Both the position numbers and the translations under genes were made by a program. From IMG/VR virus record IMGVR_UViG_2565956716_000008: DNA of 40,864 bases. One strand, given 5' to 3'. Origin of the DNA: a virus (Duplodnaviria; Heunggongvirae; Uroviricota; Caudoviricetes). Position 1 is the stretch's first letter, and each line of letters starts with the position of its first letter. The notes under the pieces were generated by a model. The model was not told the DNA's origin and did not search any database. It saw only the letters and a list, made by a program, of their open reading frames with translations. Of the stretch, positions 5,220-15,640 are shown in pieces.

Positions 5220-5582
5220 TTAATGACCTGCTGCGCGGAGTTTTCCGTCAGGTTCACCGGCAAGAGTCAGTAATTGTCCCTGGTCTTCCTGCAGAATAGT
5301 CAGGCGACCACCGCGATTGACATACATCGGCGTTTCGGTGGTGTCTTCTTCGGAAATTTTCCCGCGGTTAGTCGGGCGAACATATGAGAGTTTGTGTTTG
5401 ATTTTCACACGGTTCTCATCAAATGGTTCGATTTCCAGGTTGAGTGAGACCTTACCTTTGGTTTTCGTGTTCATCACACCTGAAGCGACTTCACTGAGAA
5501 CTGCGCCGATTTTGGTTTCAAATACGCCGCCGTCCAGCTCCCCGATAAATGCCTGCACATCAGTACTGCGTTCGCTAGCCAT
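5220..5582 (-). CDS. hypothetical phage protein (YfdP-like by size and position)
   Basis: ATG at 5582 with AGGAG RBS 7 nt upstream; long 5' extension of track ORF crosses a structured non-coding region. Confidence 0.4.
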   Translation of the reverse strand: MASERSTDVQAFIGELDGGVFETKIGAVLSEVASGVMNTKTKGKVSLNLEIEPFDENRVKIKHKLSYVRPTNRGKISEEDTTETPMYVNRGGRLTILQEDQGQLLTLAGEPDGKLRAAGH

Positions 5583-5719
5583 TTTGCTGCTCCTCATCAT
5601 ATCGACCCTGCAAGGTCGGTTGGTTTCTCCACAAAACAGAGAAGAACACCTGCGGTGGCAGCCGCCCGGATGGATTGGGTTATGAGCCCGTCGTCCGGTG
5701 ATGCTCTTCTCTGTTTTGT

Positions 5720-5765
5720 AAAAAGAGCGGTACCAGCCGGAAGCAAGTGTACAAACTGGTACCGC
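5720..5765 (-). terminator. candidate intrinsic terminator in early-left operon leader
   Basis: gcggtaccag / ctggtaccgc 10-bp stem followed on minus strand by tcttttt. Confidence 0.35.
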
Positions 5766-6019
5766 GAGGACTACACACAGCATAAAGTTGTGGTGCCGGG
5801 TGCCTCCCGGTGCCTGGCGAAGGTTGCACACCAGGCGGGTGGGTATCCACAGAAGGTCGACTGTCAGCCTCAACCTTAACCCGCGTGCGCTGAGCCGCAT
5901 TCACCACAACGCTAAGGATTCTCTCTGGTTGAAAATACTTAGCTGTTATGTGCCTGTCTTTTCACCACTTCAGGCTCGGTGGTATCCTTTTAAGCCCGTA
6001 TACATAAAAGGAAAATCAA

Positions 6020-6265
6020 ATGACTTTTGATGAAAAAGAACTTGATAATGCAATTAATAAAATCATCGTAACGTCGCTCTTTTCCTGTCTCAGCGACACT
6101 CAGCAGAAACAGTTCTACGAATCGGCTTTCAACATGATCGAGCGTTGTTGTTTCTGCGATGCCGACGAGTTACCTGAAAAAATCAGGAAACAGTTGGCTG
6201 ATGCTCTTCGAGTGCGACTTTCTGACCAATTTTCTGAAATGTGCTCTCCGAATTTGGACAAATAG
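6020..6265 (+). CDS. hypothetical protein (81 aa) in AT-rich immunity-region insert
   Basis: AAGGA RBS 8 nt before ATG; overlaps 3' end of convergent ORF 6183..6458. Confidence 0.3.
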   Translation: MTFDEKELDNAINKIIVTSLFSCLSDTQQKQFYESAFNMIERCCFCDADELPEKIRKQLADALRVRLSDQFSEMCSPNLDK

Positions 6266-6458
6266 AAAAAGGCCATTTCCATTCAGGGTCTGATGGAAAT
6301 ACTTCAGCCTGTTCCAAAGCACGGCGTAAAGAGAATACAACTCCAGCCATAATCTGATGTTTCCCATTGGTCCAGCTATCGCCGCTCTGATCTACAGGAG
6401 CGGCTATGTCGTATGACCAAACGACTTCACCACTATTGTTTAAAATCTGGACTTTCAT
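6183..6458 (-). CDS. hypothetical protein (91 aa), first ORF downstream of PL
   Basis: GGAGG upstream of ATG; convergent 83-bp overlap with 6020..6265. Confidence 0.3.
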   Translation of the reverse strand: MKVQILNNSGEVVWSYDIAAPVDQSGDSWTNGKHQIMAGVVFSLRRALEQAEVFPSDPEWKWPFSICPNSESTFQKIGQKVALEEHQPTVS

Positions 6459-6577
6459 TTTGTTCTTTAACCTCCAGATACGGGCGTTTAATGGCCCCGC
6501 CGAACAGCTCTTTTCCGCAATAGCTGCAATGTCTTTCGCGCATCAGCCTGCGCATTCACCACAACTCTAAAAACAAA

Positions 6578-6628
6578 TGTAGGATATCCAACATGTGAGT
6601 GTCAAGAGTTTATGTTGGTTATCCTACA
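6578..6628. promoter_or_regulatory. OL-like operator pair with leftward promoter (PL)
   Basis: tgtaggatatccaaca (6578-6593) and tgttggttatcctaca (6613-6628); minus-strand TTGACA at 6600-6605 between them. Confidence 0.5.
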
Positions 6629-6643
6629 TAAAAAGATAGGCTC

Positions 6644-6670
6644 ATAAAAAAACCGGGGATACCCCGGTTT
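6644..6670 (-). terminator. rho-independent terminator after repressor gene
   Basis: ccggggtatccccgg hairpin followed by 7 T on minus strand. Confidence 0.6.
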
Positions 6671-6691
6671 TGCGATAGTGAGGAAGATGTG

Positions 6692-7345
6692 TCAAAAATC
6701 CATTATTACTTGTTTGACAAGACCAACTATTCTGCAGTTCTCACCGCATTCAATAGTTTTATAGTTAGGATTTAGTGGGACGAGATACCTGTTCGGCCAG
6801 TCCTCAACAAATTTTTTGAGTGTCGCTTCTTGCCCACCATTGATATGGGCAACAACGATTTTTCCGTTAATACACTCTGTATCAATAATATCTGGCTCTA
6901 CGATAACGATAGAACCTTCTGGTATCGATGGTGAGCCGAGGGGATTGGTCATTGAATCACCACGGACCCGTAGTGCAAATGCCATTTCTGATACAAGGGC
7001 GGTAGTATAAACCCACTCTTCAGCATCTTCTTTCCTGACACCAGGCTCCGTCATTGTCCATGAACCCGCCTGAACCCACGAGATGAGGGGGACTTTTTTA
7101 ACTGCGAATATTTCAGGTTTTAGATTTATCTTTGGTTCAGGCGAGCCTTTTCCGCTAACAAGCCACAGAGGATCGCATTTAAGTGCGTTGGCTAGGGCTT
7201 GAAGGTTGGCTCCATTTGGTTGGTAGTCGTCCTTTTCCCATCCAGTAACCGTGACACGGTTCACACCAGTCAAATCAGCCAGTGCTTGTTGTGTCAGGTT
7301 CAGTTCTTTTCGCCTTTGGCGAATACGATCACTCATGTTCATCAT
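6692..7345 (-). CDS. cI-like repressor (HTH plus S24 LexA-type peptidase domain)
   Basis: N-terminal HTH (LTQQALADLTGVNRVTV), AG cleavage site, GDSM serine and C-terminal lysine; divergent from Cro-like gene. Confidence 0.8.
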   Translation of the reverse strand: MMNMSDRIRQRRKELNLTQQALADLTGVNRVTVTGWEKDDYQPNGANLQALANALKCDPLWLVSGKGSPEPKINLKPEIFAVKKVPLISWVQAGSWTMTEPGVRKEDAEEWVYTTALVSEMAFALRVRGDSMTNPLGSPSIPEGSIVIVEPDIIDTECINGKIVVAHINGGQEATLKKFVEDWPNRYLVPLNPNYKTIECGENCRIVGLVKQVIMDF

Positions 7346-12219: not shown

Positions 12220-13215
12220 GTGACCGTGAGAGCACTACTGACCCCTGAAATAGCCCCGCGTATGGGGATTGTATTGTTCAGACCAGGTTCAGAGCTGATG
12301 CCCCTGTTTATGCAGGGGCGTGTCCTGCTGGAGCCTGAGCCGGAACGTTATTCATCTTTCGCCAGTGGTGCCGTTCCGGCGGCATCACAACCGCTGGCGG
12401 ATGATCCTGCCGTTAGGGCCGTGTTCCGCAATGAGGCAGTGATCCGTCGTGCTGGTGGCGTGGAATGTCTTGAAAGCTGGTTACTTCGTGAAAAAGGCTG
12501 CCAGTGGCCTCATTCCGACTGGCACAGCGAGAACATGACCACAATGCGACACGCGCCGGGCGCGATCCGTCTGTGCTGGCACTGCGATAACCAGCTGCGC
12601 GATCAGTTCACGGAACGGCTGGAATCAATGGCAACGGATAACTGTGCCCGCTGGGTGTTGTCTGTAGTCCGTCGGGATCTCGGTTTTGATGATAACCATG
12701 CCGTGACAATGCCGGAACTGTGCTGGTGGCTGATTCGTAATGACCTGGCGGATGCCTTACCGGAAAGTGCAGCCCGTAAGGCACTGAGATTACCGAAGCC
12801 TGTTGTGCCGTCTGTCACCCGGGAAAGTGACCTTGTGCCTTCGGTTCCTGCCACCAGCATCATCCAGGATAAGGCGAAAAAGGTGCTGGCGCTGAAAGTG
12901 GATCCGGAGTCGCCGGAGTCTTTTATGTTACGCCCAAAACGCCGCCGCTGGGTTAATGAAAAGTACACGCGCTGGGTTAAGACACAGCCGTGTGCATGTT
13001 GTGGAAAGCCTGCTGATGATCCCCACCACCTGATAGGCCACGGTCAGGGTGGAATGGGTACAAAAGCGCATGACCTCTTTGTGTTGCCTTTGTGCAGAAA
13101 GCATCACGACGAGCTGCATGCGGATACCGTGGCATTTGAAGAGAAGTATGGCTCTCAGCTGGAGCTGATATTTCGTTTTATCGATCGTGCGCTGGCAATT
13201 GGCGTATTGGCGTAA
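12220..13215 (+). CDS. DUF968-domain phage protein
   Basis: C-terminal CACCGKPADDPHHLIGHGQGGMGTKAHD...PLCRKHHDELH motif; GTG start. Confidence 0.5.
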   Translation: MTVRALLTPEIAPRMGIVLFRPGSELMPLFMQGRVLLEPEPERYSSFASGAVPAASQPLADDPAVRAVFRNEAVIRRAGGVECLESWLLREKGCQWPHSDWHSENMTTMRHAPGAIRLCWHCDNQLRDQFTERLESMATDNCARWVLSVVRRDLGFDDNHAVTMPELCWWLIRNDLADALPESAARKALRLPKPVVPSVTRESDLVPSVPATSIIQDKAKKVLALKVDPESPESFMLRPKRRRWVNEKYTRWVKTQPCACCGKPADDPHHLIGHGQGGMGTKAHDLFVLPLCRKHHDELHADTVAFEEKYGSQLELIFRFIDRALAIGVLA

Positions 13216-13228
13216 GTGGAGAACGAGC

Positions 13229-13981
13229 ATGAACCTTGAAGCCTTACCAAAATATTACTCCCCAAAATCTCCAAAATTGAGCGATGACGCACCGGCGACA
13301 GGCTCAGGTGGTTTAACGATTACGGATGTGATGGCTGCGCAGGGGATGGTGCAGTCGAAAGCACCGCTTGGGTTTGCCTTATTCCTGGCAAAAGTTGGTG
13401 TTCAGGATCCTCAATTTGCGATTGAAGGTCTGCTCAATTACGCGATGGCACTGGATAAGCCGACATTGAACAAATTGAGTGAAGAAACCCGGTTACAGAT
13501 CATCCCTTACCTTGTGAATTTTGCCTTTGCTGATTATTCCAGGTCTGCGGCAAGTAAGGCTCGCTGTGAGCATTGTGCTGGTACTGGATTTCATAATGTA
13601 TTGCGCGAAGTGGTGAAACACTCCAGAAGCGGGGAATCTGTTATCAAGGAAGAGTGGGTGAAGGAACTATGTCAGCATTGTCATGGTAAGGGAGAAGTCA
13701 GCACAGCGTGCAGAGGGTGTAAGGGTAAAGGTATTGTCCTGGATGAAAAAAGGACCCGGCTTCATGGCACGCCTGTTTATAAGATTTGTGGGCGTTGCAA
13801 TGGAAACCGGTTTAGCCGTTTACCAACCACACTGGCGCGGCATCATGTCCAGAAGCTGGTACCAGACCTGACGGATTATCAGTGGTACAAAGGATATGCA
13901 GATGTCATTGATAAACTGGTTACAAAGTGCTGGCAGGAAGAAGCATATGCAGAGATACAATTGAGAAAGGTGACAAGATAA
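13229..13981 (+). CDS. Q-like late-gene regulator with DnaJ-type CxxCxGxG zinc-finger repeats (tentative antiterminator)
   Basis: position between early genes and lysis cassette, followed by short terminated leader; four CxxCxGxG repeats; GGAG RBS. Confidence 0.45.
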   Translation: MNLEALPKYYSPKSPKLSDDAPATGSGGLTITDVMAAQGMVQSKAPLGFALFLAKVGVQDPQFAIEGLLNYAMALDKPTLNKLSEETRLQIIPYLVNFAFADYSRSAASKARCEHCAGTGFHNVLREVVKHSRSGESVIKEEWVKELCQHCHGKGEVSTACRGCKGKGIVLDEKRTRLHGTPVYKICGRCNGNRFSRLPTTLARHHVQKLVPDLTDYQWYKGYADVIDKLVTKCWQEEAYAEIQLRKVTR

Positions 13982-14087
13982 ATGGTTTTCGCCGAAGATG
14001 ACGACATGATGCTTGCATTTTTCAAAAAATATGGATAAGATTTTCCCAACGATGGGCTTTGTATGTCTACCGTTGATAAGATTTAGG

Positions 14088-14112
14088 AACCCGCCACTGA
14101 GCGGGTTTTTTG
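14088..14112 (+). terminator. rho-independent terminator (tR'-like) downstream of Q-like gene
   Basis: aacccgc-cactga-gcgggtt followed by T-run. Confidence 0.6.
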
Positions 14113-14233
14113 TACCTGTAAACTTGGTGCAGTACAGTAAACACGCTGGTGGTCGTGAATACTGACTTTTTATCTTGCTGGATTTTTAGACAAGGGTTAT
14201 TGGTATGTCATGTTAACCAGAAGGGAAAAAGAC

Positions 14234-14437
14234 ATGCTAAAACAGCAAGATATGACAGAAACCGCCGCCGCAGTCCTTCATTTCTTACCTGCTGACAAGT
14301 GGGTAACGCCACGCATGATGACGAGAACTACCGGAGTAAGCGAAGCCCGGTGCCAGTTAATACTGACTCAGTTAGTTCTGGCGGGTCTGGCGAAGGATAA
14401 CGGCGGGTACGGGAATAAATTCAGACGCTGCCAGTAA
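14234..14437 (+). CDS. hypothetical small protein
   Basis: AAGGGA RBS before ATG at 14234 (track ORF starts 14210). Confidence 0.3.
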   Translation: MLKQQDMTETAAAVLHFLPADKWVTPRMMTRTTGVSEARCQLILTQLVLAGLAKDNGGYGNKFRRCQ

Positions 14438-14587
14438 TGGCGGTTTCCTGCTGTGAAAATGGGCGGCTGGTGGGTGTTGGTAGCACCTGCCAGCCATTCG
14501 CTCATGCTTACTGGTCACAAGCGAACCACGGCCCACTGCTTTAGCGCAAAAGCAGAGTGAGCCTACCAGAGTTACGCTTACTGATCC

Positions 14588-15640
14588 ATGAAAAATACTG
14601 TAAAAATAAACAGTGTTGATTTAATCAACGCTGATTGCCTGCATTTTATTCAGTCCCTGCCTGATGATTCCATTGACCTGATTGTTACCGATCCGCCTTA
14701 CTTCAAGGTGAAACCTAACGGTTGGGACAATCAGTGGAAAGGGGACGAAGATTACCTTAAGTGGCTGGACCACTGTCTGGCCCAGTTCTGGCGGGTGTTG
14801 AAACCTGCCGGAAGCCTTTACCTGTTCTGTGGGCATCGCCTGGCATCTGATATTGAGATCATGATGCGTGAACGTTTCAACGTGCTTAACCATATCATCT
14901 GGGCGAAGCCGTCCGGACGTTGGAATGGGTGTAATAAAGAAAGTCTGCGCGCATATTTTCCTGCCACAGAGCGCGTTCTGTTTGCTGAACATTACCAGGG
15001 GCCATATCGCGGCAAAAGTGACGGCTATGCGGCAAAAGAAAGGGAACTCAAACAGCACATAATGGCACCGCTGATATCGTATTTCAGGGATGCTCGTGCC
15101 GAACTGGGTATAACGGCAAAACAAATTGCCGAAGCCACAGGTAAGAAAAATATGGTTTCCCACTGGTTTGGTGCCAGTCAGTGGCAGTTGCCGAATGAGG
15201 CTGACTATCGGAAGTTACAGGCACTGTTTTCCCGTATAGCGGCAGAGAAGTTTCAGGAACAACAACTGGAACAACCACACCACCAGCTGGTGGCATCTTA
15301 TGATTCACTGAATCGCAAATATTCTGAATTGCTGGATGAGTTTAAATCTCTCCGGCGCTATTTCTCCGTATCAGTCTCCGTGCCTTATACCGATGTCTGG
15401 ACGCATAAGCCCGTTCAGTTCTACCCGGGTAAACATCCGTGCGAGAAACCGGCGGATATGCTCCGGCAAATAATCAATGCCAGTAGTCGACCTGGTGATC
15501 TGGTTGCTGATTTCTTTATGGGATCCGGTTCCACAATAAAAGCAGCAATGGCGCTGGGGCGTCGGGCGTTAGGTGTTGAACTTGAGTCAGAGCGGTTTAA
15601 TCAGACGGTGAAAGAGGTAAGTGAACTGGTGGGGAAATAA
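14588..15640 (+). CDS. DNA methyltransferase, DPPY-motif N6/N4 class
   Basis: VTDPPY motif near N-terminus and FxGSGST AdoMet-binding motif near C-terminus. Confidence 0.7.
   Translation: MKNTVKINSVDLINADCLHFIQSLPDDSIDLIVTDPPYFKVKPNGWDNQWKGDEDYLKWLDHCLAQFWRVLKPAGSLYLFCGHRLASDIEIMMRERFNVLNHIIWAKPSGRWNGCNKESLRAYFPATERVLFAEHYQGPYRGKSDGYAAKERELKQHIMAPLISYFRDARAELGITAKQIAEATGKKNMVSHWFGASQWQLPNEADYRKLQALFSRIAAEKFQEQQLEQPHHQLVASYDSLNRKYSELLDEFKSLRRYFSVSVSVPYTDVWTHKPVQFYPGKHPCEKPADMLRQIINASSRPGDLVADFFMGSGSTIKAAMALGRRALGVELESERFNQTVKEVSELVGK

Follow-up and report, generated by a model that had tools for sequence, protein, structure and literature searches.

The minus strand of a tailed-phage sequence of 40,864 nucleotides (nt) (Caudoviricetes; IMG/VR record IMGVR_UViG_2565956716_000008; hereafter the window) carries, at positions 5583-6019 and directly upstream of a YfdP-like gene, a structured leader that we read, with about an even chance of being right, as a composite cis-encoded RNA of the pL operon of an N-less lambdoid phage of the SfV/e14 type, in which an attenuator that may also yield a small RNA (sRNA) is joined to an mRNA-processing hairpin. 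Two modules make up this leader: a core resembling the STnc100 family of prophage sRNAs and ending in an intrinsic terminator, and a long Y-shaped hairpin in the 5′ untranslated region (UTR) of the YfdP-like gene. The sequence, its structure and covariation, the family match, the genomic context and the coupling of terminator and hairpin were computed directly. The window represents an SfV-type lambdoid phage, and its positions 5583-6019 are matched by Escherichia phage vB_EcoM-720R4 at 100% identity and by Shigella phage SfV at 98%.

The STnc100-like core and its terminator

The first module was recognized by a match to STnc100 (RF02076), the sole Rfam family to reach its curated threshold in the window. 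Segment 5940-5718 on the minus strand reaches 49.1 bits, the gathering score being 47 (E = 9.6e-8 for the whole window), and the match spans the complete model (positions 1-206 of 206). All other Rfam matches in 5400-6800 at E values up to 10 were chance-level only (Termite-leu over the repressor terminator, mir-9412 and ftsZ-DE), and no second copy of the STnc100-like core or of the Y-shaped hairpin was found elsewhere in the window, including the region after the Q-like gene. The initial annotation had named an sRNA as one possibility for this stretch; the full-length, above-threshold match supports that proposal and makes the candidate terminator the 3′ end of the family match. As a borderline case judged from its sequence, 5943-5718 appears to be a divergent early-left member of the STnc100/PasD family of prophage sRNAs, mostly missed by routine annotation.

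STnc100/EcOnc27/sRNA103 is described in the literature as a multi-copy, prophage-encoded and Hfq-bound sRNA with a 3′ terminator, related to PasD, whose place is the pR′ moron site, downstream of stx2B. Canonical copies were fetched from phage contigs for comparison. The core of the window shares with them, and with PasD, a prophage-borne closed junction that is followed by an intrinsic terminator; the common parts are a GGUG/CACC closing helix with covarying pairs, an unpaired GAAU, the first hairpin, a variable middle and an identical 22-nt block, CACCGGGAGGCACCCGGCACCA, which holds the last hairpin of the core. On the other hand, the canonical copies occupy the pR′ moron site, with Q on one side and the lysis genes on the other, appear to have their own promoter and often face a convergent anti-sRNA, whereas the element of the window belongs to the pL operon of an N-less phage and has neither an obvious promoter nor a convergent partner that we could find; the internal hairpins, the first hairpin, the pre-terminator sequence and the terminator itself all differ between the two.

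In the closing helix of the window, 5910-5902 (GUUGUGGUG) pairs with 5795-5787 (CACCACAAC); the unpaired GAAU and the internal hairpins follow the 5′ strand, and the last of these hairpins (CCGGGAGGCACCCGG, 5810-5796) abuts the 3′ strand, as it also does in canonical STnc100 copies. Across 18 distinct helices from canonical, SfV-type, mEp460-type, ST64B, phiES15, P1-like RCS47, Buttiauxella, Serratia and Chania sequences, 88.9% of cells are paired, compared with 21-66% in slid controls, and six of the 10 pairs have changed on both sides. A 5′ hairpin (P0) precedes the core, and its place is taken in ST64B and phiES15 by a hairpin of different sequence. The single-stranded stretch UGCUGUGUGUAGUC between core and terminator is a candidate seed or protein-binding segment. 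In Cronobacter phage phiES15 the whole series, from a short upstream sequence found in many lambdoid phages (the linker, see below) through the 5′ hairpin, the core and UGCUGUGUGUAGUC to the terminator, also heads the kil/gam operon. A sigma-70 promoter that could drive the core was not detected by a scanner on the minus strand of 5766-6019, and no conserved promoter was seen between linker and core. A weak AAGACA-17-TATTTT candidate was examined by eye and not adopted, and the linker was discarded as a promoter because its putative -10 element is not conserved between phages.

The initial annotation had pointed to a stem of 10 bp with a U-run at 5720-5765 on the minus strand, and this candidate is borne out: the two arms are 100% complementary, the hairpin has an energy of -19 to -20.5 kcal/mol, and the terminator of the STnc100 covariance model aligns to the same 10-bp stem at the 3′ end of the match. 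A simple terminator scanner had missed it solely because its 19-nt loop exceeds the 8-nt limit of that program. The minus strand has no other strong intrinsic terminator between pL and xis, and no intrinsic terminator was found in the pR operon before the Q-like gene. In nearly all genera compared, a terminator is kept about 180-215 nt before the start codon. To call the region a plain terminator, as the initial annotation also allowed, is thus correct for 5720-5765 but too small a description of the whole, since the flanking core and hairpin are each conserved with compensatory changes. In other genera (loci L006, L026, L029, L031, L032, L045 and others) a longer terminator hairpin stands upstream of yfdP, and its loop carries a conserved GGRGG...GAAGAUAAUGUUCUG; several of these loops read as a Shine-Dalgarno sequence followed by a two-codon mini-ORF (open reading frame; AUG or GUG, UUC, UGA), which could couple translation to termination. 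The mini-ORF was set aside as part of an explanation here, the window being without it.

The BoxA-like string reported by the initial annotation is present (CGCTCTTTTTACA at 5730..5718, minus strand) but does not hold up as part of a nut element. Its BoxA-like portion, CGCUCUUUUUACA, is the descending (3′) arm of the terminator together with the U-tract, and the same position reads CCGCCCUUUUU, CCGCAAUUUUUU or CCGUCCUUUUU in other genera, the BoxA-like string being present in the E. coli versions. A nut site was considered and rejected: no conserved CGCUCUUA-like BoxA was recognized, the string lies within and after the very terminator on which it should act, no short hairpin of the boxB type follows it, and no N-like arginine-rich protein was found, the early-left ORFs having no matches to N-like families.

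The Y-shaped leader hairpin and its apical motif

Immediately after the U-tract begins the second module. At the DNA level its two arms (5631-5655 and 5695-5719, each 25 nt and 39 nt apart) are 84% complementary, and they form a continuous stem in minus-strand RNA once G-U pairs are admitted, so that the long imperfect stem and loop which the initial annotation had placed at 5629-5720 is confirmed to within a few bases. The 141-nt hairpin segment folds at -59.7 kcal/mol (z = -6.0), with none of 200 shuffles as good, and the whole leader of 434 nt folds at z = -7.0 relative to shuffles. Leaders were compared at loci that encode YfdP relatives, 48 in genomes and 80 in viruses. The order of terminator, U-tract, long hairpin, GUGUGGAG(A/U)AA, small G+C hairpin, ribosome-binding site (RBS) and AUG is maintained from Escherichia through to Yersinia, Providencia and Xenorhabdus. 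Twenty basal pairs were scored, and the stem forms in all 28 variants (16-20 of the 20 pairs in each) in spite of very different sequences. Covariation was assessed on 25 distinct Enterobacterales sequences, in which 90% of cells are paired as opposed to 29-56% with slid partners; 22 of 24 pairs have changed on both sides, and no shuffle matched this result. The frequent U-G pairs fit RNA of the minus, that is early-left, strand only.

When phage contigs were scanned for the hairpin's apical motif, 87 distinct contexts were obtained, 69 of them with a GGAG motif downstream; among these 69, a terminator-like hairpin with a T-run lies within 60 nt upstream in 65, and 23 also have a full core. 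The gene that follows the hairpin varies (yfdP, an rdgC-like gene or a gene for an HD phosphatase), and a shorter version precedes the holin gene in late operons. In the P1-like phage RCS47 (L254, 2440-2640) the order of the two modules is reversed, the Y-shaped hairpin standing immediately upstream of an STnc100-like core; both elements are flanked there by upl on one side and a lipoprotein operon on the other, and compensatory changes are seen in the closing helix (GUUGCGGUG/CACCGCAGC). The second module matches no Rfam family and is a conserved leader RNA, apparently not described before. Inside the hairpin, downstream of the terminator, no conserved -10 element of a promoter was seen.

The tip of the longer apical arm, CGGGCUCAUAACCC, agrees at all of its 14 nt with the anticodon stem-loop of the E. 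coli initiator, tRNA-fMet; the 77-nt reference sequence was confirmed as a tRNA-Met gene present in about four copies in every E. coli genome, and about 0.01 matches of this 14-mer are expected by chance per window. Homologues keep the wider motif ACGG(G)YUCAUAACCCAAUC nearly unchanged: UCAU, CCC and AAUC are the same in all 28 variants, while the stem flanking the tip undergoes compensatory change (CCGGA/UCCGG, CCGGG/CCCGG, CCAGG/CCUGG and CCUGU/ACAGG). In a defective e14-like prophage, both the invariant positions of the tip and the last hairpin of the core are mutated. No tRNA or tmRNA gene was detected in the window by ARAGORN. With tRNA-fMet the tip has in common these 14 nt, including the three G-C pairs and the CUCAUAA loop; it differs in having no D and T arms and no acceptor end, in the replacement of the upper stem by an internal loop and in being embedded in a 90-nt hairpin of an mRNA leader.

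It is conceivable, if doubtful, that the hairpin mimics the anticodon arm of tRNA-fMet and engages a factor that recognizes this tRNA, such as the P site of the 30S subunit with initiation factor 3 (IF3), methionyl-tRNA synthetase or a VapC-type nuclease; VapC is reported by Winther and Gerdes (2011) to cleave tRNA-fMet in its anticodon arm. On speculation, the outcome might be translational control of the first early-left gene, or a decoy or sensor of a host toxin. The exactness of the match, the invariance of the loop beside a covarying stem, the decay of the same positions in the defective prophage and the retention of the motif in a P1-like phage and in the late-operon version before holin all speak for such a role. 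Against it, the identity is limited to the lower stem and loop, some variants keep two G-C pairs only, the adjacent invariant AAUC has no counterpart in the tRNA, the hairpin versions of Serratia, Yersinia and Rahnella are without the motif, no precedent for initiator-tRNA anticodon mimics in phages was found in the literature, and the likeness was noticed post hoc. The broader proposal, in which a functional tRNA-fMet mimic at the tip would recruit or titrate a factor of this kind and would form with the STnc100-like core a two-part RNA device of the early-left and late operons of lambdoid and P1-like phages, is likewise improbable in our estimation.

Proposed attenuation at the head of the pL operon and competing readings

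Under the composite reading, most polymerases that start at pL would stop at the terminator of 5765-5720, and expression of yfdP, yfdQ, the nuclease gene and xis would be lowered. The short pL transcript would then carry the STnc100-like domain as its stable 3′ end and could act as a 3′-end-derived sRNA, its hairpin-plus-U-tail being of the form typical of Hfq-binding sRNAs. A minority of polymerases would read through, and 5719-5583, with its hairpin, GGAGAAAC stretch, small hairpin and RBS, would become the 5′ UTR of yfdP. Cleavage of the RNase III type in the stem of about 25 bp would separate the sRNA from the mRNA part and set the stability or translation of yfdP mRNA; near-continuous double-stranded RNA of about 20 bp or more, as expected of an RNase III substrate, is present in the window in this 25-bp stem. 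The occurrence of a single strong terminator between pL and xis, together with the lack of any in pR before the Q-like gene, argues for a dedicated attenuator rather than a general antitermination cascade. No ORF intervenes between pL and the element in ST64B, which has an ORF-free leader of 800 nt, in the related locus L125 or in mEp460-type phages, so that the element is itself the pL leader there. A published list for the YmfT iModulon contains ymfJ, which lies upstream of the terminator, together with xisE and intE, which lie downstream, and makes read-through plausible in e14.

Two well-known arrangements offer partial parallels. In the E. coli rpsO-pnp intergenic region, a terminator is followed by a leader hairpin in the 5′ UTR of the next gene that is cleaved by RNase III; the succession of an intrinsic terminator and a long double-stranded 5′ UTR hairpin is the same, but there is no sequence relation and no counterpart to the apical motif of the window, where RNase III cleavage is a prediction. 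In lambda, nutL and the RNase III-sensitive leader of N likewise present promoter, RNA signal, long hairpin and RBS of the first early-left gene in succession. The window differs from lambda in having no boxB and no N, in placing the BoxA-like string inside the terminator and in setting the terminator before the hairpin.

Several observations weigh against the composite reading. Of 16 related loci, only L125 (47.8 bits) reaches the gathering score of STnc100, and the copies of SfV, the e14-like prophage, ST64B, phiES15 and RCS47 score below this Rfam threshold. By itself the core folds modestly relative to shuffles (z = -2.2), and the register of the basal stem was optimized for each sequence, so that its pair counts lean towards structure. 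The canonical pR′ context, with its apparent own promoter, is different, and the function of STnc100 might not transfer to an early-left copy. A simple role in RNase III processing leaves the near-invariant apical sequence of the hairpin unaccounted for. That termination is partial here, that the RNA persists and is bound by Hfq, and that RNase III cleaves the hairpin are what we infer for this particular element. Finally, a conserved strong terminator after pL in N-less phages is also predicted by a model of cis-acting antitermination.

That model, which we consider unlikely, holds that the core is a put-like processive antiterminator whose nascent RNA modifies RNA polymerase so that it reads through the adjoining terminator, and it would let an N-less phage express its early-left genes. 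Read-through at put sites is independent of phage protein and depends on the zinc-binding domain of the RNA polymerase β′ subunit. The position of the core fits it well: about 10 nt after the pL start in L125 or within an ORF-free pL leader in ST64B and mEp460-type phages, and in all of these relatives upstream of, and co-oriented with, the conserved strong terminator, much as putL of phage HK022 lies just downstream of PL (PMC9378689). The failure to find an N-like protein, the presence of core-like elements at the start of other operons (kil/gam in phiES15 and a P1-like one in RCS47) and the grouping of genes from both sides of the terminator in one e14 iModulon point the same way. The put RNA of HK022 consists of two stem-loops in about 70 nt with a V shape, and putL and putR are, like the present element, structured RNAs at the start of early operons, upstream of terminators, in a lambdoid phage without antitermination of the N type (PMC9378689). 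The element of the window, in contrast, is a multi-helix junction of about 125 nt closed by one helix and has no counterpart in the pR operon, which is without terminators as well. It shows no sequence similarity to the part of HK022 in which the immunity genes are expected: the best blastn match to 24-32 kb of HK022 has E = 0.28, and there is no common Rfam match, the put sites themselves not having been located in the HK022 record. Moreover, Buttiauxella has a core without a following terminator, the Kosakonia locus L026 has terminator and hairpin without a core, and canonical members of the family are documented as Hfq-bound sRNAs. The put-type element suggested by the initial annotation is thus not upheld by similarity or architecture, and put-like function itself found no support, while nut-type antitermination was rejected on the grounds given above. 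A plain terminator within a mosaic, non-functional spacer left by lambdoid recombination is very unlikely. Recombination joints do fall on module boundaries (5765/5766, about 5982 and a point within the closing helix), a truncated half-core lies at pL, and the linker at 5949-5988 is common to lambda and P22 in an unrelated context. The idea is nonetheless largely refuted by the compensatory changes that keep the closing helix of the core and the 20-bp stem of the hairpin over many genera, and by the invariant loops and the fixed order of terminator, hairpin, GGAGAAAC, small hairpin and RBS from Escherichia to Yersinia and Xenorhabdus.

Least probable of all, in our view, is that the region encodes a small protein, for instance through ORFs resembling YmfH or annotated as hypothetical proteins. 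Stop-free stretches of 57-105 codons do cross it, and both PGAP and phage records annotate proteins here, including YmfH in an e14-like prophage, so that the initial annotation's description of the stretch as gene-free stands as to conserved frames, of which there are none, but not as to open frames and database entries. From one homologue to the next the open frames change strand, frame and position, and the ymfH frame is cut to 75 codons in the window; what is conserved is the RNA pairing, G-U pairs and double changes included, and not the codons; no RBS precedes the crossing frames, and the neighbouring small ORFs have no Pfam matches. In the e14-like prophage of E. coli CY34 (L376, 2582-2893), the annotated ymfH covers the core, the terminator and the hairpin. 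A ymfH clone has been reported as a trigger of RcaT, the toxin of retron-Sen2, and this phenotype is a point for a protein; the clone contains the entire RNA element, however, and the phenotype may be mediated by RNA. Nothing was found in the literature on ymfH as an RNA, and we regard the ymfH of the e14-like prophage as probably a spurious ORF.

Genomic setting, direct repeat and prevalence

On the minus strand, the early-left series runs from the repressor gene and its terminator through pL, the 91-amino-acid (aa) ORF, the leader, the YfdP-like gene and a DUF2303/YfdQ-like gene to genes for an HD phosphatase, an exonuclease and an excisionase (Table 1). A Q-like late antiterminator gene at 13187-13981 lies about 7.4 kb from the STnc100-like copy and on the opposite strand.

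Table 1. Features of the leader and its surroundings (positions in the window; minus-strand RNA features grouped by position)
Feature	Position	Strand	Remarks
YfdP-like gene, first after the leader	Shine-Dalgarno GAGGAG 5595-5590; AUG 5582-5580	minus	
Small covarying G+C hairpin	5619-5602	minus	after the GGAGAAAC stretch
Single-stranded GGAGAAAC(C/U)AAC	5630-5620	minus	conserved
Long Y-shaped hairpin	5631-5719	minus	starts directly after the U-tract; basal stem of ~25 bp with G-U pairs, two apical arms
Tip of the longer apical arm, CGGGCUCAUAACCC	5690-5677	minus	heptaloop CUCAUAA on three G-C pairs
Intrinsic terminator	5718-5765	minus	10-bp perfect stem 5765-5756/5736-5727, 19-nt loop, UCUUUUU; U-run 5724-5720
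Single-stranded stretch UGCUGUGUGUAGUC	5769-5782	minus	between core and terminator; conserved in phiES15, ST64B, Serratia and others
STnc100-like core	5787-5910	minus	closed multi-hairpin junction, ~125 nt
5′ hairpin P0 (GCUAAG...CUUAGC)	5911-5943	minus	precedes the core
Lambdoid linker ACCACCGAGCCUGAAGUGGUGAAAAGACAGGCACA	5949-5988	minus	~40 nt, 94% identical to lambda and P22
81-aa ORF	6020-6265	plus	abuts the leader
91-aa ORF	6183-6458	minus	overlapped by the 81-aa ORF on the opposite strand
Truncated 5′ half-core, mEp460-type (GUUGUGGUGAAUGCGCAGGCUGAUGCGCG...)	6480-6570	minus	starts a few bases after the predicted pL start
pL-type early-left promoter	6605-6576	minus	TTGACA, 18-nt spacer, TACATT; downstream of the repressor gene and its terminator
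Operator-like inverted repeats	6577-6594 and 6612-6629		flank the pL-type promoter
S24/HTH repressor gene	6692-7345	minus	early-left series; its terminator at 6649-6671

The linker is a recurrent part of lambdoid early-left regions. In lambda (L252, 1475-1509) and P22 (L253, 1501-1535) it adjoins PsieB, the promoter of sieB, between the reverse-oriented sieB and ral; it is also found in phages of Klebsiella, Atlantibacter and Kosakonia, and it is the left edge of a module common to phages of the SfII/SfIV type. In the window, the reverse-oriented ORF at 6020-6265 sits where sieB sits in lambda and P22, and the linker behaves as a putative conserved boundary of the lambdoid early-left operon. 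The ORFs at 6020-6265 (plus strand) and 6183-6458 (minus strand) have 83 nt in common, and for each of them there is a matching PHROG of unknown function. In the e14-like prophage, the same convergent-overlap slots are occupied by ymfJ and ymfI, which are unrelated ORFs: no homology to YmfJ or YmfI of that prophage was found for either ORF of the window. This suggests that the pL leader and the linker delimit a moron slot, which the convergent pair fills.

A direct repeat of 14 bp had also been reported by the initial annotation. The repeat is real but longer, being 20 nt with one mismatch (5896-5915 and 6551-6570), and such a pair was not obtained in any of 100 shuffles. Its proximal copy is the 5′ strand of the closing helix of the core, and its distal copy lies in the truncated half-core, which in the window leads into the RBS of ORF 6183-6458. 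In phages of the mEp460 type, the stretch of 90 nt that corresponds to 6568-6480 continues into a complete variant core (GUUGUGGUGAAUGCGCAGGCUGAUGCGCG ... GCCGGAGAUCAGCACCGGUCACCACAAC), which is followed by the same terminator, hairpin and yfdP; in L125 a core of the SfV type comes directly after the pL start, and in L051 such a core has downstream flanks of the mEp460 type. The window, for its part, has the truncated half-core at pL, then the inserted ORFs and then the full core. The direct repeat is a recombination footprint between two paralogous cores, not a regulatory repeat, and on this reading has no function of its own. One 3′ strand (5783-5795) is complementary to two 5′ strands, 5899-5911 and 6557-6569, which lie 655 nt apart, so that the pL transcript could fold in an alternative way through pairing at long range.

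Among 5426 complete E. coli genomes, 2786 contain part of the leader and 1823 contain at least 80% of it, mostly under the annotation of a hypothetical protein; further carriers are the phages SfV, SfII, SfIV and ST64B and phages of the Stx2c and mEp460 types. Recognition of the leader as an RNA would remove spurious genes from annotation and would extend the STnc100/PasD family, mostly missed at the Rfam threshold, to a second operon context. It also exposes a conserved unit of terminator and hairpin at the head of the early-left operon of lambdoid phages without an N protein, and raises the question of how such phages pass, or use, a strong terminator directly after pL. The identity of the tip with the anticodon arm of tRNA-fMet and the action of the ymfH clone as a retron trigger are leads towards an RNA-based function, and e14 of E. 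coli K-12 may be a convenient system for pursuing them, provided that the element of the e14-like prophage examined here is also present in it.

Two observations concern other parts of the phage. Matches to the IsrK and C4 antisense RNAs are found in the early-right regions of SfV (L001, 6987-7175) and mEp460 (L002, 5675-5863); the window is without them and hence differs from SfV in its early-right module. After the Q-like gene, positions 13981-14588 of the window hold a pR′-like promoter and a strong terminator, AACCCGCCACTGAGCGGGTTTTTT, in the usual layout of a late leader.

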